This document shows, in pieces, positions 7,095-58,175 of a stretch of DNA of 58,175 bases. Origin of the DNA: Obrimoposthia wandeli (taxonomy: Eukaryota). The DNA lies in assembly GCA_977020255.1 (NCBI GenBank), contig CDROCS010004111.1:186001-244175 (forward strand), given 5' to 3'. How positions within the stretch are numbered: the first letter of the stretch is position 1; the number at the start of each line of letters is the position of its first letter. A program made the position numbers and the translations under genes. Under the pieces are notes generated by a model, which saw only the letters and a program-made list of their open reading frames with translations, was not told where the DNA came from and did no database searches.

Positions 7095-7217
7095 ACAAAT
7101 ATATGTTTTTGGATTTTGAAAATGCTTATTGATAACATACTTCATTATACGACTGTTAATAATGTTTTAGTTAGACGAAAAATAGAATATTCTAGAATGA
7201 AAGTTTGACATGTAAAA

Positions 7218-8011: not shown

Positions 8012-8329
8012 AATTTGAAGATTTATACAAAAATAGATAAAAAACGATAAATTAGTTGATGATTCTGATGATGAAATTATAAACGGAACAATAAATGGAG
8101 TTCAATACTTTTCTAGTTTTAATGGACTTTCTCGTGATAATGTAAAGGAAATTGTTCGCACACATGTCTATAGAGATCTTAAATGGAAAAATAATTTTGA
8201 AAAATGCGTTTAGATTAATCGTACAAACATGATGTATATACATTTTTCTGCATCAATATTTAATTCATTTTTGTTGTATAAATTAATAAAATGCTTATAA
8301 ACAATATTCTTCTTCTTGAAACTTAAAAA

Positions 8330-8900: not shown

Positions 8901-8939
8901 TAATCGAACTTTAAAATGAATTTCGAAAAAAATTGGAAA

Positions 8940-9745: not shown

Positions 9746-9789
9746 AATAGTTGTCCAAACACTCAACCTAATGATATTGCATCGAAATG

Positions 9790-16343: not shown

Positions 16344-16564
16344 CAATTCGAAAATTAGAACAATATGTTTGATTGTGGGGCAATTTTAATTTCAAACGAA
16401 AACTCTGGGTCTCTTATTTGCAATTTTATAGTCTAGTGTTTTGTAAAATTTAACCTTGATTTTACAAAACACTAGACTATAAAATTGCAAATAAGATACC
16501 CATGGTTTTCGTTTGAAATTAAAATTGCCCCACAATCAAACATATTGTTTTAATTTTCGAATTG
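16344..16564. repeat. Long near-perfect palindrome: 106-bp arms, 9-nt loop
   Basis: 16344-16449 is the reverse complement of 16459-16564, with about 4 mismatches. Confidence 0.95.
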
Positions 16565-23160: not shown

Positions 23161-23326
23161 TTGGAAAATGTTTAATGCGTTTTGGTTTGATAAATTTTTT
23201 TATTGTAAAAGTCGCTCAAATTTAAAATATATTTAAATATATATGTAGCTAAAATTAACCACTAATTCATCGATGAATGATTAAAATCTACATATATCAA
23301 TTACTTTTAGTCTTATGTAGACTCAC

Positions 23327-23539
23327 ATTTATAGTAACGGAGCTACTGCGGGGAGGGGTACCCATGTCCCGAGCCACCACAACCACATGGTAGATCCGGG
23401 CGTCTGCAGAGCTGAGTTTCTTGGCCAAACGTAATTCTCCCGTTTTTGGGTCCAAGTAAAACTTCATTTCTGGGTCTCCACGATCGATGTTGTACTGCAC
23501 CGTGGCATTGGGTCCTTCGTCGCGATCGTATGCCCCAAT
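23327..23539 (-). CDS. Protocadherin-like gene, last extracellular cadherin repeat exon
   Basis: Acceptor ccggcag| and donor |gtgagt. 213 nt, phase 0-0. IGAYDRDEGPNATVQY...FYLDPKTGEL...VARDMGTPPRSSSVTIN contains the cadherin AxDxDxGxN and AxDxGxP motifs. Confidence 0.95.
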
Positions 23540-24325
23540 CTGCCGGAAAACAAGTAAGGTTAGGTTACCTTCTTCAAAAAATAGACTCAAATTTACTTAT
23601 CAATTTAGGTATCAATTAAAAGGAAAATAAAAAATGCTTTAGAAAAGGTTTAAAGTTATTTTCCACTTAAAATTGATCAGGCAATTTGGTCAAACTTGCA
23701 AGATTTGAGTGATATGATTTCAATGTAAAGTGGAGAGGAATCTGAGACTGTTAGGCAAAATATTTCATAAACGGATTCTGGAAGTCCACTTTTAATTTAT
23801 AATTTCGTTTCGTCTCTTATATGAATGATCGGCCAAAATCTGTAGTTTTTTAACATCAAATGAAGCACGACAAATGAGTACAAAACCTTTTTTTTGTATA
23901 CCTATATAAAATGAACCAATATAATACTTCAACTACTTTCGATAAAGAAATTAATAAAAAATAAAAACATATAGTATAGGCATACAAACTGTATTTCAAG
24001 AAATACTAGGAATTGAAGTTGTAATACATTTTTAATCACGCTACATAGATTATTTTTTGATACTTACGCAAAGTGAAAACCAAATAAAAATTCAAGTATT
24101 TTTGAATAGTCAATAATATGTTAATACAAATTTTCACTAGGTCCATCATGCAATATTCAGGGGTTCGAATATTCTAATAGCCTTTACATCAATTTCCTCT
24201 GTCTATTCTCGTTTTTAATGTAAAATATTTATCAGTTGCACAATATCAAAAATAAGGTTAATTAAATAAATACTTTTATTGATTAAATTTTTCCATATTT
24301 TTTATTTACCTATAGTTGTCGATAA

Positions 24326-32548: not shown

Positions 32549-33197
32549 ATGGATAGTCCAATCGCGGCTAACAATACTGAAAGCAGTTTTCTGGGGGTGA
32601 ATGGAACACTGGTCAAGGTCATATACTAGTAATGGAAGATCAAGTGAATGAATACTTGAATTCATGGCCTACCAATATGGCTTTATTAACGTGTACTCTA
32701 ACGCAACAAGAAAAGGTTGGCATGTGTGTTTCACATAGATTAGAACTGTATCGGACCCATACGAATCTGTCGGCGTCGCACATTTTTGAATGTTTAACAA
32801 ATATTGACAAGATTCAATTACTGAAATTATTATTTGATTGTTTGAGAGAAGTATTAGCCGCAGTAGCATTCAGTCATAGATTGCACGACTTGCAAATAAG
32901 TAGATTCGTGGATCAAATCCCAGATGCCACAACTATTTTTCTACCTAACACAAAGATCACTCAAAATTTTCAAACTGAATTAGAAAAGAAAGTTAGATAT
33001 TTTAATAAGTATGAGATCTTGGACATATTTCTTCAATAAAACAGAAAATAAGACAGTTTTTGTCAAATCCAGTGGATGGTGATGATTACGACGAACTGAT
33101 ACAACCTATACTAGAAACGTTTTATATAAAAGCAGTCCCTAACTCCCAGAAAATAGAACTGATAATGTCACATATTTCATATACCAAAACTATGTAA
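32549..33197 (+). pseudogene. Unknown decayed ORF (~215 aa before frameshifts)
   Basis: ATG at 32549 (MDSPIAANN...), 135-aa open core at 32632-33039, shifted tail FLSNPVDGDDYDELIQ...YTKTM* ending at 33197. No recognised motif. Confidence 0.4.
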
Positions 33198-33836
33198 ATT
33201 TCATTCCAATAATCTTTGTTTGCAAATATCTGTCTGCAATCTTATCATATGATATATAGAACAAATAATTTGGTGATTCTTCATTTACATTTAATTGGGT
33301 TAATTAATTTGTATTTTTCATCAAAAATAAGTTAGCATTTAGATCAATATTTGTCATTATAATCAGACAAACAAATTAGTCCAAAATCAAATGTAACAGT
33401 TGTAATAGCTGGATTTATCAAGACGGTAATAAAATCTCCAAATACAGTGGAAGACTACAGTTCAGCTGGATTCGGTGATGCATTCAAATTGGACGGAGTA
33501 TTATGCTTCACTTTATGGCAATTTTATCGATTATTTGTGGCTTCAGTGTGTACGCATACAGAGTTTTATTAAGACTTACTTGACTCAGACCAATTAATCG
33601 ATAGTGCATTCATAAATTTGCGATTGTTTTACATAACTGGTCAGTTGCATTGATTGTCGCAATGGGTGTGATTGAAATGAACTTAGGTGCTTCGTAATAA
33701 TATGGGTTTTGGTCTTGATGAATAGCCGTTTGTCCCCTATAGGTAATAATGCAGATTTGTCAGTAATATATATCATGGCTTTTCCGGTTTGTTCAGCAGC
33801 TATATTGAATGTCAGTTTCACTTTGATTAATATCAA
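33190..33836 (-). pseudogene. Unknown decayed ORF convergent with 32549-33197
   Basis: The 80-aa ORF 33594-33836 continues through shifted fragments (...FGDFITVLINPAITTVTFDFG...YDKIADRYLQTKIIGMKFT*) to TAG at 33192-33190. Confidence 0.35.
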
Positions 33837-35705
33837 TAAATAATGAGAATATTTAATTGATGCAAGTTAAAATTGATTTTATTATGTTCAATACGTTATG
33901 TCCATCCTATCGAAAGTTTTAATTTCAAATATTTTTAAAAATAATTAGATTATAGAGAAATATTTCCAAATACATTACTATTTTAATAAAACAAGTGCGT
34001 ATTTGTAACAATTATAAACCGATCATAACAATTAAACATAGTGTATGATAGAATTGTTACGAGTTAATGTGTTGATTAACAAATTCAAATTTATATTCAA
34101 AAACACAAAAACAAATATCTGTCCCTGACCTACTGAAAATGTCATGTGATAATTCAGGTATTGGCCACATTATACATTCATTCAATCATTATTGCAAATA
34201 TACTAGTTCCATGTACATAAATGCAATATTGTTAAAGGCTTCAACCAATCTTTTCAATTTTTTGCTACTTTCAACGGTTACTTTGTACCTTGATCTTGTA
34301 TCGTTTGAGTAAATGCAACATGCTATTCATAACGAAATTCTTTTTAATTGTTCTAATCTGATTCATCATCATTTCGTACATTAAAAAAATTCAAATTCAT
34401 AAATATACTGCAATAATTACATGATGTCTGGATAATATATAACCATACATTCTCTCACACACACCATCTTAACAAAGCATGTAAAGTACAGAAAACGATT
34501 CGACCTTTCATTGACCCATTTATAATTATTTCTAACTAGACAAAAAAAATTTAATCAGCAATTAATTATCAAATGTTCTTCATTTTATTTATATATATAT
34601 ATATTATTTTATTCCATTCTTGAAATATTTACTTCCGAGAATGACTTCAGTAGAATTAAGAAACTATTGAATTTGATTTTTTTTGCCTACAGTACACGTT
34701 AATAAAGCCATATTGGTAGGTCAATAATCCAAATATCCATTCACTTGATCTTCCATTACTAGTATATGACCTTGACCAGTATTCCATTCACCCCCAGAAA
34801 ACTGCTTTCAATAGTTGAAAACGTCTTGGACAATAATTTTTATTTCGTTTAAACTTATTTGAATTGCATTCCGAATAGTGTAAAATTGTTTTTAGATTTC
34901 GACATTTGTCAAATAAGGATACTGACCAGAAAAATGTCAAATTATTTTATATGAACCTATCAGTTATATATATATATACAGTTGTTTGCTGTGGTCCACC
35001 GGTATCAACAAAAATCGACTACAATATTAATTTTCTGTGACAATTTTGTAGTTTCTTAGTTTGACATTCAGTTTTGATTTAAAATGGCAATTTTCCCAGC
35101 TCTCTGTTACATGTTTTATTGTGCTTTCCTTTCTTTTTTTGTGCATAACATAATTCTTTATGATATTTAAAATATGACATTTATCAGTTTTCTGGTATCC
35201 ATGTTTATCCATTTTGCTTTACAACTCATGTTCATTCTCAAGGTCATCTCACTGACTTTATTATTTATTTAAAATTTTTGCCTCTATATTGAAAATAGTT
35301 AGTATTGGAATTGAGGATAAAATTGTTTTACCGCTGAGAAACGTGTTTGTTTAGACCACATAACTGGTGTAAATATTGTGCAGATGAAATGATCCGAGTG
35401 AGTTAGATTACGCAATGCCATAATGTTGCTTTTCTATTATGGCTTATGATAATACCGAAAGGACGTTTGAACGAAGGAATTATATTATTTCAGGAAGACA
35501 ATTGGCTTTTACGTAGTTTAGATTTAATACCAAGGAAGATGCGTGGAAATTAATCCCGAACAAACTCTTTAATAGAACATCATTGACATCAAATGTGTCC
35601 ATTTCAGAAAATTTTAACTACTTTTTCAACCAGAATCACAGATAAAAATTATCAATTTATATAAGAATCATATTTTATATTTAAATTAATACTTGTAAAA
35701 TACTA

Positions 35706-39300: not shown

Positions 39301-42300
39301 TATACTACAGACCAAGGAAATAGAAAGGGAAATTAAATTAAATTGTTTAAATTTTAATTAAATTAATTTCGAGGAAAAAATTCGTAAAGTAGTGAAAAAT
39401 GTTTCTGCATAATCCGAAAGAAAAAGGGCAAAATTGGATCTAAACAGTTGGTTAATCTATATAGACAATATAGTACATTTAAATGCAAAACAACCCTCTA
39501 CTAAAGAAACTCTTAATTAAACAAAAGAACGGGTGAAAGAAAATCCTCAAGAAATCTTATCAAGACTAATCCAAAAAATCAATTTACCCTGATTTCAAGA
39601 AGAAGCCCACAAAGTTGTACAATCCAATGCGACAATTTTACCGGATCCGCTAAAAAATCTTAAAACTATAAATGGATCTGATTTTGAAAAATAAATAAGT
39701 TATCAATATTCTGCTTCTCAAGTGTTCTTCGTCTAGTGGATCAAACAGGCAAGAATGGAGTGGGTAGATCACAAAAGTTCTGTCAATTATACATTGTTTT
39801 AGTTGAATTTTTAAAGTAACATGGAATTATTTAGTTTTTGTTGTACAAAGCTCAACAATCAATTTGTAAATAAAAGAAGCCGAATACCAGCAATTATGAG
39901 AATTAAAAAATATATATATTAGCGTTAAAATTATGAAAACGGTTACTTTGATTCCCTGTGGCCCATGAAGTTGAAAAGTAGAATATATACATTTCTATCT
40001 CAAAATTTAGTCTTTATAAAATGTTTTCTGCTAGTGTCGACCGTCGAGCTTCACGTAGCGGTCTCTTTGGATATAATTTGGAGAATCCAAATTGGCACAT
40101 TACTTGAATTTTGGGATAATTTGGATTCCAGTCGGAAACCTTTGGCGGTGAGGATAATTGCTTTTGTACCAATTGTACTAGAAGGTTTTTCAATGTGGTT
40201 TTGATAAAACTTTAAATTATACTTTAAAGTTGTATTTGGTTCATTAAGGTTCGACTTTCTTTTTGGCTAGAAATATTTCTCGCTCTAGAGTCACATGGTA
40301 AAAATAGTATTCAATTATGCTTCTACATTTAGTTCAGATTCTAAATTGAGAATCTTATTTCCAAACAATCAATTTAATTAATATTTCTCAACTATTACGT
40401 TTTATTGCATATCAATGGGTTACAGCTAATGTTTGCTTGGTTATTTATTTTATTTTTTGACTAAAACACGGGTAACATCTATCTAGGAAAAGCGTGAATA
40501 AACTGAGAGTATCCGAATCTTTTAGATGTTTATTTTATTGTAAAATATTTCTCTTCGTAATTGATCTGAAATTGATTTCATTAATGTAAACTCTAGTTCG
40601 ACTGTAAGAGAAATTGAGAAGGAAATTACTGAAATTGATATTTCTCCATACATCGATTTCCCGATTTCCCGATCATGGATTTGCTGCTCAAACGGTGTTG
40701 ACGAATCCGCCCAGAAAATTGATGGAAGGTTCGAGGATAGAAGATCGAGTGAAGGCTTTCTCCGTAACCCCGATGAATGATTAATGTGAATGTGGATGAC
40801 AAATTTACAATTTCGATACAATCTGCCTGCTAATCCTGATTGATGAGTGACATTTGCTCCCCAACACGTTTGCTCGCTGACTAATCTCAGCTGACTTCTC
40901 TCGGCTCTTCGACAGACACACACACGCACACACGCATATAGAGGGAGAATAGCTGGCCTGATTCTGATTTTCTTAGATCCGAATTCTTCTACTTCGATTG
41001 ACAATTGTAATTATTAGATCAATTAGCAATTTAGATAGGCGATTTCTTCTGCGAACTTTGGGTTTAATTTTTGAGATTCATCCATGAAATTAATTGATTA
41101 ACAGGATCAGTTTTCAAAAGTGTCCCCAAAGAACTTTTGAAATGAAGAAAGGAAAAGTATTCAACTTTTAAGCTGTTAGAGCAATATTGATCATAGGATA
41201 AAAAGAGATGGAAAAAATGGATGGAAGCTGATCAAGAAAATAAACATAAGGCTATATTATTTGATGTAAGATTAATATAAAACCATATTAAAGAAAATAT
41301 AAGCTTCGTACATGTCGGTGAAAATATTATTAATTAAAGAACTAAAATAAAGAACATTGTTTGTGTCATCGATAAAAATATAACAATGAATTGTCAAATA
41401 GTGATAAAAACATGAAACAGTTATATGAAGAAGATTTATACTTTAAGAAAATACTTCACTCCTGAGAAAACTACATTGCTAATGTATGCGTTTATTACAC
41501 CAAGACTTGACGTTTAAAACTATTTATCGATTAATATTCCACAATTTTAATTTTAAACAAAGCCACCAAAATTATATTCAAATTAAAGAGGAAAAAAAAA
41601 GCCCGAATTACCAAAATACTTTATCCCAAAATCCCAAACATTTACATGGCTTTCTCGATCATTGTACAGTGGGCATGTATAGACACTTTGGGAGCAACAA
41701 CGATGACTGCAGGTTCGCTAAGAAATTCATAAATAACTAACGAAGTGAGGAAATACTTGTTATTTGGCTCCAAATCTTTATAAAAATAAATTTGAAATGA
41801 ATTTAAAAACTGTAAAAATGTTGAAAAGAGCCAAGACAATTCAGAAAATATTCAGAAAAGGTATATCTTGTAAGAACTTGTCAGAATGCGCTTTCAGTAA
41901 GAGCTTTTCAGTAATATTTCATAGTTTTTAGATATTTGTGTCTTATTAAATTTTGGTAAAATTTTCTTAAAATGTACTTAAAAATTCAATTCTTCTTTAC
42001 TCAAAAATGTACTTAAAATTAAATTCGTCTTTACTTAAAATTTTAAAAAAATTAACTAAGTTGACCACAGCATTGTTGGAGTTCAAAATGTGACAATATC
42101 TGAAAAGGTTCAAAATAGTTGTATAGAATAATATAAACCTGAAACAAAAAATAATATTTTAATAGCGCAATACGCTTAGCTGTTTCCTAATTGTAGCTCT
42201 TAGTGTTTGTCAAACAGAAATAACAATGTGTAAAATGGTCACGTTGATAACTGAAATATGCACAAAATCGTAATATTATAATATTGATGATTTGACGAAA

Positions 42301-45136: not shown

Positions 45137-45494
45137 CCAGCGTATCCAAGAGTCAGCGTATCCAAGAGTCAGCGTATCCAAGAGTCAGCGTATTCAAGAG
45201 TCAGCGTATCCAAGAGTCAGCGTATCCAAGAGTCAGCGTATCAAGAGTCAGCGTATCCAGAGTCAGCGTATTCCAAGAGTCAGCGTATTCAAGAGCCAGC
45301 GTATTGAAGAGTCAGAGTAATCAAGAGTCAGCGTATCCAAGAGTCAGCGTATCCAAGAGTCAGCGTATCCAAGAGTCAGCGTATCCAAGAGTCAGCGTAT
45401 CCAAGAGTCAGCGTATCCAAGAGTCAGCGTATCCAAGAGTCAGCGTATTCAAGAGTCAGCGTATTCAAGAGTCAGCGTATTCAAGAGTCAGCGT
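45137..45494 (+). repeat. 16-bp tandem array (CCAAGAGTCAGCGTAT), ~22 copies, inside the LTR
   Basis: Directly visible; it generates the spurious repetitive ORF 45304-45582. Confidence 0.95.
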
Positions 45495-45587
45495 TCTTCG
45501 GATTCCGCAAATTACCTACGGATCCACATCGGACATCTCGCCGTACCGGAATCAGCGAGTAACTGGTAAGAACACAGACTAGGTTCA

Positions 45588-46024
45588 TTCATTGCCCCTA
45601 GTAGGCAATTAGGATATATTCATTACCCCTAGTTGGTAATTCTATATTTCCTTAATAATACACAAATTCATTGCCCCTAGCTGGTAATTAGGATCACTGC
45701 CTCTTTACCACAATCATTGCCCCTAGTTGGTAATTAGGATCGGACCTTTATTCATTGTCCCCAGCGACAATTAGGAAACTTACCAGACGTTTTTTCCCGT
45801 AAGATTCATTGTCCCTAGCTGGCAATTAGGTTCCTTCATTGCCCCTAGTTGGTAATTCGGATAAATATTCATTGTCCCTAGTAGAAAATTCGGTAAGACT
45901 CATTGTCCACTAGCTGACAATTCGGTTCGCACATTGTCCGTAGTTGACAATTAGGAGTAAGTTTTATTGTCATCTGGACAATTAGGATTTTAGGAGATCC
46001 CTTGTCTACAGTAGACAATTTGGG
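45588..46024 (+). repeat. ~12 spaced copies of an imperfect palindrome TTCATTGYC-(N7-8)-GRYAATTMGG inside the LTR
   Basis: Examples: ttcattgtccctagctggcaattagg, cattgtccactagctgacaattcgg, cattgtccgtagttgacaattagg. Spacers are of variable length. Confidence 0.85.
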
Positions 46025-46507: not shown

Positions 46508-46526
46508 TGGTGCCCCGAGTGAGGAT
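46508..46526 (+). promoter_or_regulatory. Primer binding site, probably elongator tRNA-Met
   Basis: TGGTGCCCCGAGTGAGGAT is complementary to a tRNA 3' end ...ATCCTCAC(T/A)CGGGGCA-CCA, which matches metazoan elongator tRNA-Met as I recall it. Confidence 0.75.
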
Positions 46527-46552: not shown

Positions 46553-47405
46553 TAGAATAAGTTCAGATAAGTTTTGGAAAATTGAGAATAAGTTCAGGTG
46601 AATAGAATAAGTTCAGATAAGTTGCGGATAATTGAGAATAAGTTTCAGGTAAATAGAATAAGTACAGATATTAAGAATAAGTTTCAGATATTGAGAATAA
46701 GTACAGATATTAAGAATAAGTTTCAGATATTAAGAATAAGTTTCAGATATTAAGAATAAGTTTCAGATATTAAGAATAAGTTCAGATATTAAGAATAAGT
46801 TTCAGATAAATTGAGAATAAGTTTCAGATAAATTGAGAATAAGTTTCAGCAGAAGAATATAGACAATTGAGAATAAGTTTCAGAAGAAGATATAAGTAAA
46901 TTGAGTTAAGAATTTGATAAGTGTTAAGAAATCGGGTAGATTTGTTCCTCGAAGTTAAGAATTTGATAAGTGTTGAGAAATCGGGTAGATTTGTTCCTCG
47001 AAGTTAAGAATTTGATAAGTTTTTGAGAAATCGAGTAGATTTGTTCCTCGAAGTTAAGAATTTGATAAGTGTTAAGAAATCGGGTAGATTTGTTCCTCGA
47101 AGTTAAGAATTTGATAAGTGTTGAGAAATCGGGTAGATTTGTTCCTCGAAGTTAAGAATTCGATAAGTTTTTGAAAAGTCGAGTGGATTTGTTCCTCGAG
47201 TCAGTAAATTTTATAAGTGAGAATCGAGTGGATTGATACTCGAAGTAATTAATTGAATAAGTTAAGTCGGGAGACTCTGTCCTCGAACTAATTAAAAAGA
47301 TAAAATCGTAAGTGAATTTGATAAAGTGAGAATCGAGTGGATTGATACTCGAAGTAATTAATTGAATAGGTTAAGTCGGGAGACTCTGTCCTCGAACTAA
47401 TTAAA
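46553..47405 (+). repeat. 5' leader built of three tandem arrays (~20-bp, 49-bp and ~110-bp period)
   Basis: gaataagtttcagatatt units at 46553-46880; gaagttaagaatttgataagtgttaagaaatcgggtagatttgttcctc x~6 at 46903-47198; two copies of gtgagaatcgagtgg...cctcgaactaattaaa at 47217-47405. Confidence 0.9.
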
Positions 47406-47693
47406 GAGATAAAAAGTCGTAAAATAAGAATTGTGAAATAAGCTAAAAATAATAAGTGAATTGATATCGTAAACGAATACATAATTGATAAGACAACGGA
47501 TAATAGAAAAGGACCCGCGTATAATACTAGAAGACAAAGTCAGATCCCCAAGGAAGAGATAAATAATAATAAAGTTAACCGAATTGAACAGGTTCCCCAA
47601 ACAGATAACAAAGTAACAGAAAAGACTAGAGTCGAAGAAAACGTATCAGAAAGAGACGTTGATCAATCAGATGTTTCAACCGGCAGTTTTAAT

Positions 47694-49833
47694 TTGACTG
47701 AATTATTTGGTGACATAGACCAAGAAGAATTTGAAATTGCCAATCCAGTAGTGATTGAGGAAGTTCCATTGAATAATATTGCAGAAATAGTTGAAGACGA
47801 TATAGTTGCAGATATGGCTCAACCAGGAGCTCAAGCAGATATTAATGCAGGAAATAATGTAGGTGACATGAATGCCGAGCAGTTGGCACAAGCTTTAAAT
47901 GCGACGTTGAGACCCAATTTTTCAGGATCATTGCAGATTACAAAGTTTAAAGGAGATGAGGAAAGTATTTGTGACTTCCTCGCAGAATATTCGAGTTGTG
48001 CAGATGTTCAAGGATGGAACGATAAAGAAAAAATGTATCAGAGTACAGGCACATTTAACCGAATTAACACTTGAAGAGTGTAAAGATTTGACAGAAGCAG
48101 AACGTTTGGACTGGCGAGCGTTAGGTACTGCTTTTATTGGAAAATTGGTATTAGGAGATTTAGCCAAAGTAAAATAAGCGACTCATGAGAGAACGGAAAC
48201 AGAAACATGATGAAGGCGTGAATGAATACGCGTATGTTTTGAGAACCTTGGCCGCAAGAGCGTACCCAAGAAGAATAATGAGAAATCAGGACGGTAATCC
48301 TGTAGCTCCAGAAGCACAAGCAGCGGAAAATGACCGGAACCAAAATGAAATGGCAGAGGTCTTGTTAGATATATTTAGAGGAGGATTGAAAAAAGGATAT
48401 TAAAGTGTTATTAGCAGTATCGGATACAAATGATTTTGATAACGCCGTGCGAAAGGCGAGAGAAATTGAGAAAAATATAAAGAATAATGCAGCATTGGCA
48501 ATCTACGCAATGACTGCAGGTGACGACGATAAGACAAAGGTCTTCGTGAATAAAACAGAACCGAGTAATTTTCAGAATCGAAATTATGGACAAAATAAGT
48601 TTGAAAAAGTAGATGAATCCAGTAACGGAAACAGAGATAATTTCCGAAGTAGGAATCGAGATGATTCGAGAGGTAGAAATAATAGTGAGTCTTGGAACAG
48701 GAATCGAGATGATTCAAGAGGTAGAAATAATAATGATTCGTGGAATAGAAATAGAGATGATTCCAGGAATAGATTTAATAGAATAATTCAGGAAATCGCC
48801 AACCTTGGAGAGGAGACGATAGGAATTATAACGCAAACAGAGGAGAACAAGTGACTCTCGATTTGGAAATAATGCAGGAAATAGTGACGGAAGATTCAAT
48901 AATCGAGGAAGCGGTTTTGAATCGAATTTCCGAAGAAATGATTTTAGAGGACGCTATGATAATAGACAGAATAGTCGTCGAGTACAGTTCGAAGATGAAC
49001 AAAATAAAATAGATATTCGAGGGAGAATAATGTGTTACACATGTAAACAAATGGGTCACTATTCGAGAGATTGTACGAGAAGTAAAGAGTTCGGAGCTAA
49101 CAGATTTGGAAATAATTATAGAGGATATAATTCACCTCCGCCATGGAATAGAGGTGGTGGATATACTCCACAGCCATGGAGACTGAATAATCAGTATGCA
49201 GATAGACAGCAAGGAGCTGAGAGATACAATAATTACGTAGGACAGCAAGGAGCTGAGAGATATAATAATTCTGGTAGATATAATAATAATAATGTCGACA
49301 AGACAAATAGTCGAGAGAGTTCGCCGAAACCGAAAGGAAATTTTAGTTATGTAAGCGATGACAGTGATAGGAATCGCGAGACCGAGCTTCGACGCGAAAT
49401 AGATTTTGAAGATAGTGATAGTAAATTTGAACGAATGTTGGGAATAATTAAAGATTCACCACATACAAAGATGGCGAATTCATCTACGTTGTCGAAACAA
49501 GAGAGAAGTCTACATTCGAGAGGAGAGATGAATGATTTAATGAATAGAATATTAGAAGCGTATGAGACACCAATAGAGAAAACGTGTAACGCACAACCTA
49601 TGACTGATCATGTAGAAGCAGCAAGAAATGCTACGAGTATGGAAAATGTAAAAAAGATAATTAGTGAAGCTAAGGAAACGCTGAATCAACCGTTAGATGA
49701 AACAGTGAAGCTCCAGAAGTTTTGGCCAAATTGCAAACAATTAAAGTGCACCGATTGGAAGAAGTACGTGCAGAATTGGTTAAACATAGTCATGATAACT
49801 TGGGTTACAAAGAAGTACCCCGAGGACTACTGA
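47694..49833 (+). pseudogene. gag: gag (capsid, low-complexity R/N/D linker, CCHC zinc knuckle), frameshifted
   Basis: ITKFKGDEESICDFLAEY...GWNDKEK and RKQKHDEGVNEYAYVLRTLAARAY are Gypsy gag-like. Zinc knuckle CYTCKQMGHYSRDC at 49033-49074. About 6 frame disruptions. Confidence 0.85.
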
Positions 49834-49877
49834 GAGGTTATGGTCGTTATGTACAGAGATCAAACCAAAAAGGAACG

Positions 49878-50108
49878 ATGAAAATTTCACTTCGATTAAT
49901 TTCCGGACAGATAATACATGAAAAACTTAACGTGTATCAAACAATGAAAACGATTCGGAAAAAGTTAGCCGAGAAACTTGAAATTGATGGAATGAATATG
50001 TTGTTCCATTATAAAGGCAGATCACTAGATGATGAGGACGTACCAGTCGAGTTTGGATATCCGATAGGAAATGAATTAGAGGAAAAAATTGATGTCATCA
50101 CTGTAGGA
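49878..50108 (+). other. Ubiquitin/SUMO-like domain
   Basis: MKISLRLISGQIIHEKLNVYQTMKTIRKKLAEKLEIDGMNMLFHYKGRSLDDEDVPVEFGY aligns without gaps to ubiquitin [61 protein letters not shown]. Confidence 0.7.
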
Positions 50109-52841
50109 CGTCAAGAGTTAGTAGATAATGAAGGATTAACCGAGATATTGAATTCTGCGTTAGAAATGATAAAAACGCCTATAGAAATTTTAGACAGTTC
50201 AAGCGAAAGCGGAGATAATGATGTAGCTGAAGTTTGGAACAAGACATCCACACCAGAACCGTACGTAGCTGAATTACAAGACATGAATTTAGAAAATGAG
50301 TTGACAACTCCAGTGGTTGAGGTGCCACCAGAACCAGATATAATTCCAATCAGACAAGATGAAGTCACGGATACAGCCAACCAAGTGAGACAAAACGAAA
50401 CCGTAACACAACTAGTAGGAGAAGACGAAGTCTCCGAGATTGTAGATTTGGATTCACCAATTTGGCATGCCGCATACAAAGATAGACAAGCAGAGCAAAT
50501 GATGCGACAAAATGAAGAGATTGGCCATGAAGAAGGACCAAGTCAAGAGATACAGTATAATGGTGAAACGTATGATCCAGGAGAGAATCAAACTGAGTAT
50601 CAGTATTTTCGAAGAGGGCCTGGAAGACCTAGAAAAGGTGAAAGTATATTACGAAATGTTCTAACTGCACCACAAACTGATGAAGAAAGACATCTAAGTA
50701 TTGGACAGTTAGCGGCGTCATTAGAGCAGTATAGTGCAGAGAGGAATGAAGATATCAGAGGTGATATGAATTCGGAAACTCCAAGTAGTAAAGATATACT
50801 TACGGGAATTCTCAGGCAAGTGAAGCCGAAGTTGTTCAAAATGTACAGAACGGGAATTCTCAGGCAAGTGAAGCCGAAGTTGTTCAAAATGTACAGAGAT
50901 GAAACAACCGATATAACAGACAATTTGACTAAAGCAGTCAGATCACAGATGTCTGCAGTAAAGAGAATGACCGCGAATCATGTATACCATGCATCGATAG
51001 ATAGATTTTATGACGGTGAAGTTTTAGCGAGATTATGTGGAAACCAGACTACAAATAAAAAGTTAATTACAGCGATCACATATCTATGTTTCCAATTGAC
51101 GGAACGAACGAGCCAACCTCACGAAGTCAAACAAGGAATAAATGAAGCGATGTATTTGATCGAGAATGTATTACAGAGACGAATTGACGAAAATGGAGGT
51201 TGGGCAAAATTAAGTGACTACGCTAAAACCATTGTGGAAATTAATGAAGACGATGACGAACAATGTCATGAGAATCGTCAAAAGGAAAATAAACAATACC
51301 GTCCGAAAGAGAGAAACAATCAACCAAATATGTCCACAACAATGATGATGATGATGTTAGTAATGTTTATGGGAATGCAACAGGCATCAGGATTGATAGC
51401 ATATGACTGTAGCATACCAAAGATGGGACAAAAGTATTCACTGCTTGACAGCGAAGACTGTCCAGAATCACAACCGTCAAAACTAGAAGTTCAAGGTGTT
51501 GAAAACTACTTTGTGTATCAGGATGTTGATAAAGTACAAGTAGAAGTGAAAGAATGTTCAATCCATTCAAGTTATCACGAATTCTATTGTGGTCATAGAA
51601 GTTTTATGTCAGAAATCACACCTACCACACCGTACAAGGCACATAAGGTTTTGCCGAGAGATTGCGAAGATGCATTTCGAACGGGAACGATAGGAGGTAG
51701 ACAAAATTACAAACCTGAAGTACAAATTGGAGTGAGACGATACGAAACAGTCACGAGAGTCGGACAGCGATGGGCTGATGGATCTTGTGACGGAGAAACA
51801 AAAAACGTGCGTGGAACCAAAGTATCTGAGTTAGTAATGGATGTAACTTACAAAATCGAATTAAAAACATGGACCGCCAATTTTGATAAAAAGACACAAC
51901 TAATGATGAAGTATCCAGAATGTAAAATGACAGATGCATCTTGTTTTACAGGTGAATCCACAATTGTGTACAACATAAATCCGAAGCAATGCTCTTTAGT
52001 ATTTTTGAAAGAGATTAGCTTTAATAAAATAAAAGGATTCCTGTATAATAAAGATGGAGAGGGGTTCCTGTATAATAAAGCAGGAAAAGGATTGTTAAAT
52101 GAAACAAGACCAATCCCAATGACAAAAACACCTACACTGTTAATGGCAACATCAATAGAAGAAGGATTGATATTTATTAAAAAGAGAAACAAAGCGCGAT
52201 GCGGAATGACTGTTAGTACCACAAACTATCCAGGAATAGTTTTGTCCAAAACAATAGCATTGGCAGAAACCAAGCTAAAACCAAAAGATATGCAGCTACA
52301 CACGTATTTTAATAATAAAATTGATTTCTATTATCATAAAGGATTGATGCAAATGGAACAGTTATATCGGATGATGATTGAAAGAGATTGCCAGTTAAAC
52401 AAAGAGATCGTGAGAACAAAGTTAGCATTAGCTATTACGAATCCAGACATGGTAGCACCATTATTACCCTTGGATGAAGGAGTATTTGCTAAAACCATGG
52501 GAGAAGTATTGTATACTTACAAGTGTAATAAAGTAGAGGTACAGTTGAGAAAAACAAATCGATGTACGAGTGAATTGGCAGTAACGTATAATTTACAAGA
52601 ACTTTTTGTTGAACCAATCACGAGAATGTTACTTCCAAAAGACACCCCAACTAAAGAAATCAGCTGCTCTAATATAATGGCACCTGAATATCAAATGACG
52701 AATAATCTATGGATAACGTTACCTGATCGAAAGCCAACGAAAACCCCAGCGATGATAAGAATGACGAATCTTAAAGGTAAAATGAAATTCCAAGCGGTGG
52801 AAAATATGGAGAACGCAGGATTGTACAATGAAAAGATTTAA
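49878..52841 (+). CDS. Intact 987-aa ORF: ubiquitin-like domain - AT-hook - Bcl-2-like domain - signal peptide - chuvirus-type glycoprotein ectodomain
   Basis: The first in-frame ATG is at 49878 (the frame is open from 49722). No stop until 52839-52841. Confidence 0.85.
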   Translation: MKISLRLISGQIIHEKLNVYQTMKTIRKKLAEKLEIDGMNMLFHYKGRSLDDEDVPVEFGYPIGNELEEKIDVITVGRQELVDNEGLTEILNSALEMIKTPIEILDSSSESGDNDVAEVWNKTSTPEPYVAELQDMNLENELTTPVVEVPPEPDIIPIRQDEVTDTANQVRQNETVTQLVGEDEVSEIVDLDSPIWHAAYKDRQAEQMMRQNEEIGHEEGPSQEIQYNGETYDPGENQTEYQYFRRGPGRPRKGESILRNVLTAPQTDEERHLSIGQLAASLEQYSAERNEDIRGDMNSETPSSKDILTGILRQVKPKLFKMYRTGILRQVKPKLFKMYRDETTDITDNLTKAVRSQMSAVKRMTANHVYHASIDRFYDGEVLARLCGNQTTNKKLITAITYLCFQLTERTSQPHEVKQGINEAMYLIENVLQRRIDENGGWAKLSDYAKTIVEINEDDDEQCHENRQKENKQYRPKERNNQPNMSTTMMMMMLVMFMGMQQASGLIAYDCSIPKMGQKYSLLDSEDCPESQPSKLEVQGVENYFVYQDVDKVQVEVKECSIHSSYHEFYCGHRSFMSEITPTTPYKAHKVLPRDCEDAFRTGTIGGRQNYKPEVQIGVRRYETVTRVGQRWADGSCDGETKNVRGTKVSELVMDVTYKIELKTWTANFDKKTQLMMKYPECKMTDASCFTGESTIVYNINPKQCSLVFLKEISFNKIKGFLYNKDGEGFLYNKAGKGLLNETRPIPMTKTPTLLMATSIEEGLIFIKKRNKARCGMTVSTTNYPGIVLSKTIALAETKLKPKDMQLHTYFNNKIDFYYHKGLMQMEQLYRMMIERDCQLNKEIVRTKLALAITNPDMVAPLLPLDEGVFAKTMGEVLYTYKCNKVEVQLRKTNRCTSELAVTYNLQELFVEPITRMLLPKDTPTKEISCSNIMAPEYQMTNNLWITLPDRKPTKTPAMIRMTNLKGKMKFQAVENMENAGLYNEKI
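50610..50639 (+). other. AT-hook motif
   Basis: RRGPGRPRKG (GRP core flanked by basic residues). Confidence 0.7.
50790..51230 (+). other. Bcl-2-like helical domain
   Basis: BH2-like LQRRIDENGGWAKLSDY (NGGW at 51192-51203; cf. Bcl-xL WIQENGGWDTFVELY, Bax WIQDQGGWDGLLSYF). BH1-position helix NKKLITAITYLCFQL at ~51054-51098. Confidence 0.6.
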
Positions 52842-53238
52842 AGCGGCGTGGAACGAAATAATGTTTCCAGTAAGAAGAGCCAGAGTACTTACGGAGATGG
52901 TACATCGAGCATTACCGCCAGGAGCGAGATATGCAATTTCGATATGTTATTATCGCCAAGTCATTTCAAGGAAGCAGCATCAGACACTTAGAAAGATGTG
53001 GAAATTCCTTGTCTTAGGACAACTATTTTCGGGTATCATAGGTATTTATGTTATAATTAAATTTGTGCAGGTAATTATAGCCCAGGTGTTGTCTACGTAT
53101 AGTTTATACAGGATAACCGGAATCACCTGGCAACTTATAATTGGATGTTTTCCATTTTTAGCAAAATATCTAATGCACCATCATCACGAGAACGAGTTGC
53201 GAGCCCTCAAGAAGAACAACACCAAACGAGAACCATGA
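51330..53238 (+). other. env: Chuvirus-type envelope glycoprotein; TM tail frameshifted after ~52835
   Basis: Signal peptide MSTTMMMMMLVMFMGMQQASG, then LIAYDC...SLLDSEDC, YCGHRS, LHTYFNNK, QLY...DC.L, NPD, GEVLYTYKC..V.V..R.T..C..EL.V and F.EP.TR. The hydrophobic WKFLVLGQLFSGIIGIYVIIKF segment is in the 52828-53238 frame. Confidence 0.8.
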
Positions 53239-53537: not shown

Positions 53538-53822
53538 CCACAAGTAGCAGTAACATTGAACGGAAGAGAATATCTTGCCGAAGTTGATACCGGATCTGCA
53601 GTATCAGTACTGAGTAAAGAAATCTTGTCATCAAAGAATTAAGAGAAGTATGTCCTAGAAAACAGACATTTGTTAACGTGAATGGTACAGATGTAGTGTC
53701 GGAAGGAACACTGAAATGTTCATTGAATATCGATGGAAGAGTATTACAGTTAAATGCTAGAATATTCACAGATTGCGGTAGTCCAGTCATGATTGGGATG
53801 GACGTAATACAGTGTTTGAAGG
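53538..53822 (+). pseudogene. pro: Retroviral-type aspartic protease, copy 1 (frameshift ~53640)
   Basis: VTLNGREYLAEVDTGSAVSVL (DTG at 53586-53594); after the shift ...VNVNGTDVVSEG...SPVMIGMDVI. Confidence 0.85.
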
Positions 53823-54066
53823 AATAATTATACTACCAAACAACAAGAGTTATAAGAATGATAGTTCAGTGAGAGAGATAAAAATGTTGAGAGGACCTAT
53901 AGTCGAAAAGGAAAAAGGCACTACGTTCCGTATGGGAAGTTCGTACCCAGACAGAAAACAGGAAGCGCTAGCAAAGTCGATACTTCACTACAAAAATGTA
54001 AATTTCGGACCACAAGATACGACGAGGAGAAAAATAACATATGTAAATCTGTCAGAAAGGGATCCC

Positions 54067-55099
54067 ATGAGATTCGAGAGAAAGAGGCGAAATATATTAG
54101 AACAGTACTATTCAAAAGGAATGGCACGTAAAATGGCAAGATCAGGTTTAGAAATGCTAAACGCGACAAAGTAGTTATGGTCAGGAGATAGTAGTACGAT
54201 GCGTATGTGGTGTAGAGTAAAGTTTAGAGAATGGGAACAGAATGAAAACCCAATGAGACGTCATAAAAGAGATGCACCAAATTGTCCATTTCTTTTGAAA
54301 CTGAAAAACGTCAAACGTACCAGAAGTCAAACAGGAAAAGCACCCGATTTCGATTACAGTGACGGGGGTAATTCCGAAAGGAGAATCAGCTCTAATAACA
54401 GGTAGAGTAATAACGAATAGTCAGAATTGAAGATATATTCGAAGTTATGCGAAGTGAAACGAATGTGACGAACAGTATCGAGAAGTAACTTTCGAAGATC
54501 CAAGACTTAAAAAATTGGCAAAAAGGGACTTTTGCTATAAAAAGGATGGTAAAGACGTAATTAAATGCCACAAGTGTAAAAAAGAACGAATTATCGACAG
54601 ATATACTCTTGAGCTACCTAAGAAAATTTTACATCATGAATTTTGCGAATTTTGTACTTGTAAAAACAAAATAAAGCAAAAAAGAACAGAAAACCGAATG
54701 TATAATCGAATACCAAATCACACGGAAAGAGATTTTGGCTCAACAAGACACACCGGTAGTGTCATTCGTGAAAGGTTATATCCAAAAGAAGCAGAAAGAA
54801 TCAGAGAATTGGTAGAATTAAAAATAAAAACTACGCGAAACGGATACGGATCGATTTTGAATTACTGCGAGATAAAGATGACAGTACAATTGAAACAAAA
54901 GAAAAGTACATAAATGAACTAGAATACGTACTAGAAGATCCGGAATGCGCAGTTTGCATGGTTAACAAAATAGAAGTTGCCTTTCTACCATGCGGACATG
55001 TAAGAACATGTCGGAGATGTGCGAATGAAATGGTATCATGTCCGATTTGTCGAAAGAATAATAGATCGACAAGTGAGAAACATTAGATTTCACTATCCA
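54067..55099 (+). pseudogene. iap: IAP module BIR1 - BIR2(degenerate) - UBA-like - RING embedded in the pol polyprotein
   Basis: BIR1 (54067-54294) gives C-V-W-C-x16-H-x6-CPFL after repairing a frameshift at ~54205. BIR2-like LAKRDFCY...DVIKCHKC at ~54515-54650. UBA-like LVELKIKTTRNGYGSI. Complete IAP-type RING CAVCMVNKIEVAFLPCGHVRTCRRCANEMVSCPICR (54946-55053), missed by the ORF track. Confidence 0.92.
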
Positions 55100-55180: not shown

Positions 55181-55473
55181 CCAGCAGCTATCATTAGAGT
55201 AAATAATTTAAGAGTAAAAAAGCCTTAATTGATACAGGTGCTGTAGCTTCGATAGTAAGTGAAGACTGTTTGACAGAGGAACAGAAACGAACAATGGCAG
55301 AACCAGATGAATTCTTGGTATCGGTCAATGGAGACCCTGTAAAAGTGACAGGAATATTACCATGTACATTTATAATTGGACGTAATACGATCACTATACC
55401 AGTTAGAATCATGAAAGAATGTCCTGAACCTACAATTTTAGGAATGGATGTATTATCACAACTCAAGGGATAA
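55181..55473 (+). pseudogene. pro: Retroviral-type aspartic protease, copy 2 (frameshift ~55220)
   Basis: PAAIIRVNNLRV.ALIDTGAVASIV (DTG at 55231-55239)...VSVNGDPVKVTG...PTILGMDVL. Confidence 0.9.
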
Positions 55474-55959
55474 GTATTGATTTACAAGATCAAGATTGAA
55501 GGATAGCACATCAAACAGACAAATAAACCAAATTGATGTAATTATAGAGAATCCTATAAAAATCGGTAAAAGATCACAATTTCTCATTCAAGGCCACACG
55601 TTATCAGAAGATAAAGGACCAGTTGTGTTCGAACCATCACGAGATTTCATAGAGAAATACGAATTACCAGTTTGTGAGTACATATGCCTGATCGAAAATC
55701 ATAAAATACCAGTTAGACTGATGAATACAACCAACAATGACATTCTATTATACAGAGGAATGAGGTTGGGAAAGATAGCACAGATGGAGAATTCCACTGT
55801 ATGCGCTATGAAACTCGATAAAGATACGAATGATTACGAAGAAATAGTAATCCAACCAGAAAAAAACAATTACTCGATCTAATACATAAATTTCCAAAAG
55901 TAATTGCAAAATCCATATGACATAGGAGAAACACTGTCATAAAACATACAATACCACTG

Positions 55960-56830
55960 ACAGAAGACAAAGTAGTCAGAAGAAGACCATATCAGTACCA
56001 TTACAATTACAAGATGAAGTAAAAAGTCAGATAGAAGATATGTCTAAAACAGGAGTAATTAGACCGAGTTTTCGCCATTTTCAGCACCTGTGGTGTTGGT
56101 AAAAAAGAAGGATGGGAAAATGAGATTCTGTATAGATTTCCAGAGAACTAGACAGATCACAAGAAAAGATGTGTATCCATTACCTAGAATCGAAGAGATG
56201 CTCGATAAATTGGGTAATTCAGATTATTTACAACATTAGATTTGCAGAGTGGATACTGGCAAATCGAGATAGAAGGAAGAGGATAAACACAAGACAGCCT
56301 TTTCCTTCGGAGATGGATTATACGACTGCGAAAAGATGCCATTCGGACTGACAGGAGCTCCAGCAACATTTCAGCGTTGCATGAATTTTGTACTCGCATC
56401 GTGTGCAAACACGATGGTTTATATCGATGACATAATAATATTTTCGAAAACGTTCGAAGAACATTTAAAAATCTCGAAGTTGTATTTAAAAAGGCTGGAA
56501 AAACGCTAAATTAAAGTTAAACCTACAAAATGCGTATGGGCTAAAGAGCGAGTAACATTTTTAGGACATATAGTATCGAAGAGGCATTCGACCTGATCCA
56601 GCAAAGATCGAAAGTAAAAGCGCATTTAGCACCAAAGACTGTTAAGGAGATACAGAGTTTTTTAGGTCTTGCAGAATTATATAGACGATTTGTTGAACAT
56701 TTTTCAGATATAGCAACACCATTGAGAAAGTTGACGAGAAAAGATGAGAAGTTCATATGGGGAGAAGAAGCCCAACAAGCGTTCGAGCATTTAAAAGAAA
56801 GACTGATAAAAGCACCAATATTGAACCCAG
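55960..56830 (+). pseudogene. pol: Reverse transcriptase, frameshifted
   Basis: SPFSAPVVLVKKKDGKMRFCIDF, YPLPRIEE, LDLQSGYWQI, MPFGLTGAPATFQR, YIDD (56420-56431), FLGHIV, FLGLAELYRRFV. Confidence 0.95.
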
Positions 56831-56844
56831 ATATAAACAACAAT

Positions 56845-57200
56845 TCATACTCATGACAGATGCAAGTAACTATGTGAACAGTATTGGGACAAGAGGATGA
56901 CGAAGAAGAACACATTGCGTATGCGAGTAGAGGATTAAACAGGCCGAAAGAGGATACTCTGTTATCGAAAAGGAATGTCTGGCAAGATGTATTATGTGAA
57001 CAGTACAAACACTATTTGCTAGGACAAAAAGTATTCCTGTATACAGATCACAAACCACTACGAGTTCTTGTATAAACATAGAGATGAGATGAGTAGATTA
57101 AACAGATGGTTTCTAAAATTGGCCGAATTCGATCTAGAAATCCGTTATAGAAGAACCGGAAAGTCGAACGGCAACGCAGATTGTTTATCGAGATTGACAA
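56845..57200 (+). pseudogene. RNase H (Ty3-type), frameshifted
   Basis: MTDAS, IAYASRGL, YLLGQKVFLYTDHKPL, RW...LAEFD..I.Y...GKSNGNADCLSR. Confidence 0.92.
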
Positions 57201-57489
57201 ATGTAGACGAGAAAGGAAACATAATTCCAGAAGAAGATGAAACCAATGACCAAAAAAGGAGAAGCAAATCTACTGACGATTTTGTTAAAGACGGGTAAAA
57301 TAGACAAAGAGATCATCAAAGAACAGAAGAAGATGAAGAACTGAGTCTAATCAAAAAATTGTTGGTGAAAAGGAGATCTAAACGATGAAATGACGAAGAA
57401 ATCTCGATAAAAGAGGCATCTGTATATTGTCAATAATGTCGAGAAGATAGTAGTAGTAATTCCAGTCATTGAAAACAGCAGTGATGATC

Positions 57490-58175
57490 CAGTATCACGA
57501 CGGAACACTAGGAGGACATCGTCAGGGCGAAAGACAATAGCCAGAATCAAAGAGAAGTACCGTGGGATGGTATGGAAGACGACATAAAACAATGGTGTAA
57601 ACAATGTAAAGTATGTTTAACCAGAAAAGACACCGGAACTCGTACTAAAGTTCCGTTGAAACCAATACCAGTTCCTTTGGCACCAATGGAATTCACAGCG
57701 ATGGATATATTGGGACCATTAGAGAATCAAGTAAAGAGCAAGTATGTCGCGTAGTATTTACGGATTACATGACGAGATGGGTAGAAGCATATCCCATGCA
57801 GAACCAAGCTGAAACAATAGCGCAAATCTTAGTGGAAGATAATATTTCGATGCAGGTGCCTAGAAAATTGTTAACGGATCAAGGTAAGAACTTCACTGGA
57901 GAAGTCATAAAAGCAGTATCGAAGATATTCGGAATCATGAAGTTACAAACTTCACCATATCACCCACAGACAGATGGTCTGGTGGAAAGGTTTAATAAAA
58001 CTTTATGTATGATGGTACAATCCTATTGCTCATACAAGCAAGAGGATTGGGATAAATGACCTTCATGTTTATATGCTTACAGGAATTCAGTTCGAGAGGC
58101 GACAGGTCACACACCATTCTATCTGATGTATCTCGGGCAGAACAATATGCCGATGGACAGCAATGCCGTGGCTTA
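57490..58175 (+). pseudogene. int: Integrase (HHCC + rve core), truncated by the window end
   Basis: HDGTLGGH...CKQC; MDILGPL; DYMTRWVEAYP; LTDQGKNF; SPYHPQTDGLVERFNKTL. Confidence 0.95.

Follow-up and report, generated by a model that had tools for sequence, protein, structure and literature searches.

How does a Gypsy-type LTR element come to carry a chuvirus-type membrane glycoprotein upstream of pol, and how could a polyprotein built in this way return its Pol part to the cytosol? These questions are raised by a 58,175-nt stretch of the Obrimoposthia wandeli assembly (hereafter the window), in which a first-pass annotation had recognized such a glycoprotein. The best explanation as a whole, which we consider very probable, is that this region encodes the env part of a Burro/GYPSM1-like Ty3/Gypsy LTR element, now decayed, of the GAG-ENV-POL errantivirus class with an HSV/gB-type env, and that intact members would work through the mechanism proposed below; the likeness to Burro is set by domain order and by motifs read by eye.

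Domain content of the element and fold of its glycoprotein

The visible element spans 11.7 kb from the primer site to the window end, which falls within the integrase, and holds about 3,500 codons as far as the integrase core. Its domain order is Gag, ubiquitin-like, Bcl-2-like, env, protease, BIR, RING, protease, RT, RNase H and integrase. The features, all on the forward strand, are:

45138..45971 (+), blocks of tandem repeats with units of 16 nt and about 30 nt, lying upstream of the primer site
46508..46519 (+), candidate primer-binding site, tentatively tRNA-Met(CAU) (a single match across the window against 0.02 expected)
46553..47414 (+), tandem-repeat leader with periods of 20, 49 and 109 (repeat analysis)
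47460..49833 (+), Gag region, split into five or more frame pieces (PF00098, E 2.4e-6)
49033..49077 (+), CCHC zinc knuckle in the Gag region (from sequence)
49878..50100 (+), ubiquitin-like domain sharing the env frame (PF00240, E 0.068, sub-cut-off)
50898..51248 (+), putative Bcl-2-like helical domain, in frame with env (homology to relatives, structure model)
51330..51392 (+), predicted env signal peptide, internal (its hydrophobic core, KD10 2.41, precedes AYDC by about 19 residues)
51393..52985 (+), class III (gB-like, chuvirus-type) ectodomain, with an open frame as far as about 52835 and three frame breaks after it
52996..53109 (+), single transmembrane anchor with the membrane-proximal region (KD19 maximum 2.32)
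53119..53175 (+), weak hydrophobic patch (KD19 1.26)
53544..53824 (+), first aspartic protease domain in two frame pieces (DTG at 53586)
54205..54294 (+), C-terminal portion of a BIR domain (PF00653 at E 1.3e-6, exceeding the cut-off)
54937..55065 (+), IAP-type RING finger (PF13920, E 3.6e-13)
55207..55470 (+), second aspartic protease domain (PF13975, E 3.8e-7)
55526..55800 (+), conserved spacer domain between protease and RT (homology to 8 relatives, E 4e-16 to 2e-7)
56066..57230 (+), Ty3/Gypsy-type RT and RNase H with 11 breaks (Pfam, PDB match, RT tree)
57440..58175 (+), integrase (H2C2 and core) with 6 breaks, cut by the window end (Pfam)

The glycoprotein itself held up under closer analysis: profile search and an AlphaFold2 model both indicate that the product of 51330-53238 is a class III fusion glycoprotein of chuvirus type. 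The part from 51330 to 52838 matched PF24664 (Monjiviricetes fusion glycoprotein) at E 1.1e-65 (222 bits, cut-off 27), and 52786-53235 matched the C-terminal part of the same profile at E 7.2e-17. Each of the 14 ectodomain cysteines sits in a column with conservation of 90% or more across 111 aligned rows. The AlphaFold2 model, built from an alignment dominated by standalone relatives, was confident (pLDDT 92.8), and the similarity to viral fusion glycoproteins was clear: its best viral matches were chu-like virus glycoproteins (E 9e-35, TM up to 0.79), herpesvirus gB followed at E 2e-12, and the first 12 rows of a fold comparison were all class III fusogens (Z 11.1, rmsd 7.0, 402 aligned). 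A sequence search of env against solved structures gave nothing (best E 0.89), and fold comparison alone worked. On the model, then, env has a class III, gB-like fold.

The Met at 51330 starts a Met-rich hydrophobic stretch that ends in ASG followed by LIAYDC, and the A-x-G pattern would place the start of mature env at about 51393. As first annotated, this signal peptide is internal, within an open frame of 1,046 codons, and its hydrophobic core is present in 18/18 in-frame relatives examined; four of these have no Met inside 45 residues of the mature start, so that there the signal peptide is truly internal. The env frame is broken near 52836, 52934 and 52980. Since intact relatives continue into the protease, env probably does not end naturally at the 53236 stop. 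No furin site was found in the window env.

We assign 50898..51248 to a Bcl-2-like domain with moderate confidence. The segment is homologous to four fetched relatives (E 4e-9 to 3e-6), two of which match Pfam Bcl-2 below cut-off, and the best 24 VIA rows for its model (pLDDT 73.4) were all Bcl-2-fold proteins (Z 6.0–7.9). Searched with the same domain, Atlas returned only weak DUF6532 matches below recognition level, phmmer against PDB found none and Foldseek gave no match at E 0.001. At its edge the domain contains a copy from the 48-nt tandem duplication at 50802-50897. The ubiquitin-like domain matched single-domain ubiquitin variants at E 3.7e-4. The protease-RT spacer had no Pfam match and is 'dUTPase-like' by position only, a label taken from PMC6431247. 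The first-pass annotation was silent on the ubiquitin-like, Bcl-2-like, BIR and RING domains and the second protease. MATH_TRAF_C and ankyrin had no match in 24 window pieces, which are short and lack the 3' end; the relative P0010 carries both Bcl-2 and ankyrin, and Burro-like elements already differ from one another in MATH.

At the 5' side, the repeat blocks at 45138..45971 probably lie inside the 5' LTR. No LTR pair was found within the window, the 3' end of the element lying outside it, and no tRNA gene was found within the window. The primer-site-like 12-mer differs by one mismatch from two Met_CAU 12-mers and one unassigned 12-mer in the supplement of PMC13524379. The flank has a G+C content of 28%, in line with the >70% A/T of Schmidtea, though non-diagnostic.

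Element class and the env lineage

The pol region is of Gypsy type, as had been proposed. Pfam profiles recovered the protease, RT, RNase H, integrase order of Ty3/Gypsy, and Ty3 RT was the best PDB match of the window RT (E 1e-12) in a PDB listing without any BEL/Pao RT as competitor. Against ten of ten relatives with env and RT in one frame, the window pol scored 99–203 bits, versus 23.5, 0 and 0 against three BEL/Pao polyproteins; in an RT tree with the same three controls, the window fell on the Gypsy side of a split with 100/100 support. The BEL/Pao control polyproteins are marked by Pao peptidase (PF05380) and DUF1758/1759/5641, whereas 0/24 element pieces matched Peptidase_A17, DUF1758, DUF1759 or DUF5641, the DUF5641 site lying beyond the window. 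Env sits between gag and protease, upstream of the protease motif at 53586, with RT, RNase H and integrase further downstream. The window thus combines a Gypsy Pol with a gB-type env between gag and pol, the defining content of GAG-ENV-POL elements. It departs from the uninterrupted frames of the PMC13524379 survey through 27 breaks over four aligned stretches; these mark a defective copy of a known kind, not a different kind.

Intact relatives carry gag, env and pol in a single frame of 2,100–3,900 residues. Env, protease, RT, RNase H and integrase share one frame in 6/7 long relatives, and the RT-bearing one-frame layout recurs in 4 more of 18 relatives scanned, giving ten relatives with env and RT in one frame. 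The annotated single polyprotein is therefore seen in intact relatives, the window copy itself being broken.

Two other origins were weighed. That the element made its own, previously undescribed capture of a chuvirus glycoprotein, as the first-pass annotation had suggested, we regard as very unlikely. Chu-like glycoproteins are its closest viral folds, its env lineage lies apart from the two BEL/Pao-linked glycoproteins sampled, which is the part of that suggestion that stands, and GAG-ENV-POL elements make up no single clade according to PMC13524379. However, the window env groups in a 26-row clade (SH-aLRT 99) with 17/17 env-before-protease relatives, which largely refutes an element-specific capture: by this grouping the window element appears to have made no fresh capture and to sit in a divergent env-before-pol family. 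Identity within the clade is only 30–42% (37–42% to the nearest fetched relatives), so that the capture would be old and common to the family. The layout is moreover in print (PMC6431247 section 7 and PMC13524379 section 5); with env in the middle of a single flatworm polyprotein already published, the locus is real, yet no new kind of thing. To a chance nested insertion of a glycoprotein endogenous viral element into an ordinary Gypsy element, or to a BEL/Pao RT, we give almost no credence. PMC10084718 reports that chuvirus-type glycoproteins mostly adjoin fragmentary LTR elements, with no clear Gypsy capture, as such an insertion would have it, but the window env shares its frame with upstream element domains, and the ten one-frame relatives, the pol bit scores, the RT tree and the lack of BEL/Pao profile matches refute both variants.

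Of the earlier interpretation, the glycoprotein type, Gypsy RT, position and signal peptide stand, whereas the novelty of the layout, a capture by this element itself, the supposed topology problem and the view that this glycoprotein occurs mainly in BEL/Pao elements do not; on the last point, section 14 of PMC13524379 lists 114 gypsy elements with this type of glycoprotein.

Topology, proposed mechanism and a long open frame

Downstream Pol had been thought to face an unusual route back across the membrane. The annotated transmembrane region was right as to one strong segment and wrong as to several: by hydropathy rather than a trained predictor, only 52996-53109 is strong. The patch at 53119..53175 is probably a cytosolic membrane-hugging helix; it scores KD19 1.01–1.57 in 13/14 relatives scored, and 69 standalone relatives have a similar weak patch, none of which (0/69) reaches KD19 1.8. 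Exactly one strong hydrophobic segment lies between env start and RT in 9/10 RT-bearing relatives, with a second segment at threshold in P0021. We rejected a two-anchor topology on hydropathy, and the internal signal peptide plus one strong anchor would suffice to bring Pol back to the cytosol.

In an intact member, one long frame would be translated, and the Gag, ubiquitin-like and Bcl-2-like domains would fold in the cytosol before the internal signal peptide entered the ER membrane and the glycoprotein was threaded into the lumen. There signal peptidase would free the env N-terminus at LIAYDC and the conserved cysteines would pair. Because the single anchor would halt transfer, the tail, proteases, BIR/RING, RT, RNase H and integrase would remain cytosolic, and the retropepsin copy directly after the tail could release membrane-bound Pol. 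On budding particles, trimers of env may then fuse membranes as gB does, letting the element move between cells, with the Bcl-2 and IAP-type cargo perhaps preserving the life of the producing cell. The data show the domain content and order, the fold and the Gypsy RT of the window, and among relatives a shared frame with one strong anchor; the sites of cleavage, the topology, the making of particles, their fusion and any anti-apoptotic effect are proposed. On polyprotein processing, our literature search, which left out most subscription journals, yielded PMC6431247 only.

As assembled, the present copy cannot make anchored env or Pol. Within it, a stop-free frame of 1,046 codons (49701-52838) covers the ubiquitin-like and Bcl-2-like domains and the env ectodomain; the longest open frame in 100 shuffles of the element was 138 codons. 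The frame has 0 breaks in 3,135 nt, versus 17 across the 1,937 nt that cover RT-RNase H and integrase (about every 114 bases), and the Poisson chance of zero breaks is 1e-12 at the pol rate and 9e-4 at the gag rate. It is conceivable, though improbable, that the host kept this frame as a putative working gene while the rest decayed. Its products, equally doubtful, would be a Bcl-2-like protein whose tail anchor is the cleaved signal peptide of env, along with an ectodomain secreted without an anchor; the latter, cut off from its anchor by the break near 52836, might, on the same slim chance, block entry of related elements. A second reading, for the whole family and likewise improbable, would fit alongside it: protease copies may lie at the polyprotein's membrane junctions, and a second signal-plus-anchor membrane protein after the integrase may be env's receptor-binding partner. 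Besides the break-free frame, retention is favoured by the 14 intact cysteines and by residue loss in RT-RNase H (184/230 invariant residues versus 211/236 in an intact relative, p 0.0065), with none in the ectodomain (111/145 versus 108/145). However, the integrase shows no excess substitution (109/130 versus 109/131), 15/17 pol breaks are frame shifts with little substitution, which matches assembly error or patchy sequence quality no less than decay, and recombination with a younger copy would look identical. Homopolymer-type sequencing error was unsupported, the longest runs near 18 breaks, whose positions are approximate, being 2–4 bases against a random mean of 3.1. If host-retained, the frame would show that an invertebrate has domesticated env and Bcl-2, and would deserve much more attention.

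On the preferred reading, a decayed Burro/GYPSM1-like element, the locus contributes one broken, divergent member to a described family, a structural check on the class III nature of its env type and a simple topology model for env within a Gag-Pol polyprotein. Little work seems to exist on this family's fusion, particle formation and the role of its Bcl-2/IAP cargo.

Comparison with known systems

Nematode env-before-pol elements have reportedly been described by Sacco et al. 2022. PMC6431247 (2019) describes the planarian Burro/GYPSM1 elements, with an in-frame env between gag and pol; section 7 gives for Burro Gag-CCHC, Ubi2/SUMO-like, BCL2, env and protease, as well as BIR and a dUTPase-like domain, and Dugesia japonica Burro copies are decayed, with stops and frameshifts. 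The window shares the single-polyprotein plan, a Gag with CCHC and the Ubi/SUMO-like, BCL2-like, env, protease series, the first three of which lie in one open frame; the protease link is broken here and intact in relatives. Also common to both are BIR, the conserved protease-RT domain, RT-RNase H-integrase, tandem repeats and the in-frame env, that of Burro matching mononegavirus-type glycoproteins. Burro differs in having MATH, ankyrin and two or three CCHC motifs, whereas in the window neither cargo was seen and one CCHC was detected. Its total of 4,873–5,140 aa compares with about 3,500 codons, and its internal region of up to 25 kb (>30 kb overall) with 11.7 kb so far. Through HHpred, PMC6431247 tied the Burro env to gypsy Env/F-type proteins, whereas the window env fold is class III, and repeated protease domains, of which the window has two, go without mention in its section 7.

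PMC13524379 catalogues GAG-ENV-POL gB-type Gypsy elements in Platyhelminthes, Nematoda and Bryozoa. Like these HSV/gB-type errantiviruses, the window has a Ty3/Gypsy Pol and a class III env between gag and pol, with signal peptide and anchor flanking the ectodomain; a furin site is not universal among them. The env segments of the six Schmidtea GAG-ENV-POL elements (Smed_errantivirus_1-6) carry the window's motif series, judged by eye. That survey took intact copies only, whereas the window copy is broken, and its main text leaves Burro, Bcl-2 and apoptosis cargo unmentioned.

Anakin (BEL/Pao; PMC7642597) carries the same glycoprotein family, PF24664, but has a Pao-type RT and peptidase and places env after the integrase rather than before the protease; Anakin-type env is about 25% identical to the window's and lies on the opposite side of the glycoprotein tree. 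The BEL/Pao relative P0159 has, as the window does, an internal signal peptide, in its case within a single polyprotein. The window env has its fold and cysteine framework in common with Chuvirus/Jingchuvirales G and herpesvirus gB; these compare with it at identities of 16–21% to the best viral glycoproteins and 10–13% to gB, but are separate genes with N-terminal signal peptides.

Setting and type of the element

The window is AT-rich animal DNA, with a G+C content of 28% over positions 1–44,000 versus 37% from 46,500 on (planarian base composition is given in PMC11410931). From ~46.5 kb on, the + strand is taken up by a single LTR-type element that reaches the end of the window; a primer-site-like sequence lies at 46,508 (one match in the window versus 0.02 expected). 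Elsewhere, a cadherin exon is probably part of a host gene, 126-nt inverted repeats represent a possible small DNA transposon, and a probable Maverick/Polinton-like remnant, for which we infer the Polinton label, adds another mobile element that carries IAP cargo.

Features of the window outside the Gypsy element
7,209–10,662, + strand: region of the probable Maverick/Polinton-like remnant, with BIR (PF00653, E = 8e-11)
7,784–7,957, + strand: RING-like piece of this remnant
8,958–9,401, + strand: integrase-core piece of this remnant (rve_3, E = 0.0013)
10,126–10,662, + strand: family-B DNA polymerase piece of this remnant (Atlas score 0.97)
16,344–16,564: 106-nt hairpin
23,300–23,596, − strand: cadherin domain exon (PF00028, E = 1e-17)
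30,672–31,019 with 41,233–41,589: dispersed inverted repeat, ~350 nt
32,575–34,813: inverted repeats of 126 nt, 93% alike, 2 kb apart

A Pfam scan of 30 window pieces, 24 of them from the element, gave the domain order CCHC knuckle, ubiquitin-like (weak), env, protease, BIR, RING, protease, RT, RNase H and integrase. BEL/Pao markers, present in three control polyproteins, had no match in the scanned element pieces. The window pol matched 10/10 env-before-pol relatives at 99–203 bits, versus 23.5, 0 and 0 bits for the three BEL/Pao controls. An RT tree of 14 rows placed the window with Gypsy (100/100 split); having no third outgroup, it shows only the Gypsy–BEL/Pao split. Ty3 RT was the top PDB match of both RT pieces. 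The first-pass annotation's Gypsy assignment, with env before the protease, is thus upheld, and the RT does not group with BEL/Pao.

The glycoprotein and its polyprotein

A stop-free frame at 49,701–52,838 (1,046 codons) contains the env start, where a Met at 51,330 opens a hydrophobic stretch ending ASG|LIAYDC. Env from this Met matched PF24664 (E = 1.1e-65), and the piece 52,786–53,235 matched the end of that profile (E = 7.2e-17); breaks interrupt the gene near 52,836, 52,934 and 52,980. Each of the 14 cysteines in the ectodomain shows conservation of at least 90% across 111 aligned rows. The AlphaFold2 model (482 residues, mean pLDDT 92.8) lay closest to chu-like virus glycoproteins among viral structures (E = 9e-35, TM up to 0.79) and to herpesvirus gB among solved structures (E = 2e-12). 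In a second fold comparison the top 12 rows were all class III fusogens (gB: Z 11.1, rmsd 7.0, 402 aligned). The proposed chuvirus-type identity from 51,330 on, with similarity to viral fusion glycoproteins, is therefore confirmed.

Searching for longer proteins returned seven matches among 1,780 candidates (2,713–3,865 residues, 37–40% identity), six of which have a single frame spanning env, protease, RT, RNase H and integrase; judged by sequence, these intact relatives show what would be the element's native layout. Extended to the full library, the search yielded 1,091 relatives at E 0.001, of which 150 were listed; among 18 proteins scanned, 4 more have RT in frame. Of 159 proteins, 28 were first excluded as too short; the glycoprotein tree then comprised 66 rows, made up of the window, 22 proteins that were long or linked to polyproteins, and 43 of 109 standalone proteins. 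The window fell within a 26-row clade (SH-aLRT 99) that held 17/17 proteins with env followed by a protease motif, which speaks against the suggested independent capture by this element; both BEL/Pao-linked glycoproteins fell outside. Containing no named viruses, the tree points to no donor. In one relative (P0085), a PF24664 glycoprotein is fused directly to an RNase H domain of Gypsy type, with no RT, either another arrangement or a rearranged copy.

A hydrophobic core lies 15–23 residues ahead of the xYDC motif in 18/18 in-frame relatives examined. Four of these lack a Met within 45 residues; in those at least, the env signal is internal, as had been proposed. Beyond the ectodomain, hydropathy shows one strong segment in the window (KD19 2.32) and a weak patch (1.26; 1.01–1.57 in 13 of 14 relatives scored). 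By hydropathy, 0/69 standalone relatives had a second segment at ≥1.8, and 9/10 RT-bearing relatives had exactly one strong segment from env start to RT. The signal peptide would thus enter the membrane and the single anchor leave it, placing Pol in the cytosol, a signal-in, anchor-out topology shared with flavivirus-type polyproteins; the supposedly unusual topology would need nothing further.

Cargo, post-integrase regions and the open frame

Upstream of env, in the same frame, lie a ubiquitin-like domain and a helical domain homologous to four fetched relatives, two of which have Pfam Bcl-2 matches below cut-off. In a VIA comparison of the helical-domain model (pLDDT 73.4, five sequences), the top 24 rows were Bcl-2-fold proteins (Z 6.0–7.9), including poxvirus A52, B14 and A46, which we take to have this fold. 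Because Atlas, phmmer against PDB and Foldseek gave no significant support for Bcl-2 identity, we are moderately sure of the Bcl-2-like label. Its GGW motif lies 68 residues ahead of AYDC (53–81 in the four relatives), so the cleaved signal peptide could remain as a tail anchor of the Bcl-2-like domain.

Cargo between the first and second protease varies among elements: the window has BIR plus RING there, whereas relatives P0007 and P0009 have C2H2-like zinc fingers (below cut-off). Ankyrin repeats follow the second protease motif in P0010, and P0013 has five protease motifs. Between BIR and RING, a Cys/His-rich piece (54,458–54,910, + strand) looks by eye like a second, degenerate BIR; it had no match in Pfam or among relatives. 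Three protease motifs occur in six of ten RT-bearing relatives (P0006–P0009, P0011, P0012): two lie between env and RT, and the third after integrase. Six of the ten have at least two hydrophobic segments after integrase. There, P0007, P0008, P0011, P0012, P0016 and P0023 carry a signal-like segment, a region of 240–380 residues with no match in a Pfam scan, and a C-terminal anchor, possibly a second envelope protein in these relatives. Post-integrase tails matched one another only between P0006 and P0007 and between P0011 and P0012, both of them close pairs.

Outside the 1,046-codon frame, the element is interrupted every 100–450 bases. The open frame at 49,701–52,835 (+) has no break in 3,135 nt, beside 11 in 1,201 nt of RT–RNase H, 6 in 736 nt of integrase and 7 in the protease-to-RT stretch; such a frame would have a probability of 1e-12 were breaks as frequent as in pol, and of 9e-4 at the frequency in gag, for which the break count is a lower bound. 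Retention by the host would fit an intact frame beside a heavily broken pol, and RT–RNase H keeps fewer invariant residues than an intact relative (184/230 versus 211/236, P = 0.0065). However, integrase showed no such difference, nor did the ectodomain, and the substitution evidence for unequal decay is mixed. We consider host retention improbable, and less likely than uneven quality of the assembly or recombination with a younger copy.

Comparison with published elements

Retroelement relatives of this glycoprotein had been described as lying mainly in BEL/Pao elements, such as Anakin (defined in PMC7642597). That view is not supported, and the layout is already published: PMC13524379 describes gB-type env in GAG-ENV-POL elements of Nematoda, Bryozoa and Platyhelminthes. 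In arthropods it counts 114 gypsy elements that carry the chuvirus-like glycoprotein. PMC10084718 had reported no clear Gypsy capture for this glycoprotein type. The PMC13524379 supplement lists six Schmidtea elements (1–215 copies), whose env segments share, by eye, a motif series with the window. Given published env-before-pol elements of like layout, we place the element with the Burro-like elements, to which it belongs by domain order and like which it would work. The glycoprotein is real and correctly identified, and the copy is new but broken; its architecture is already known.
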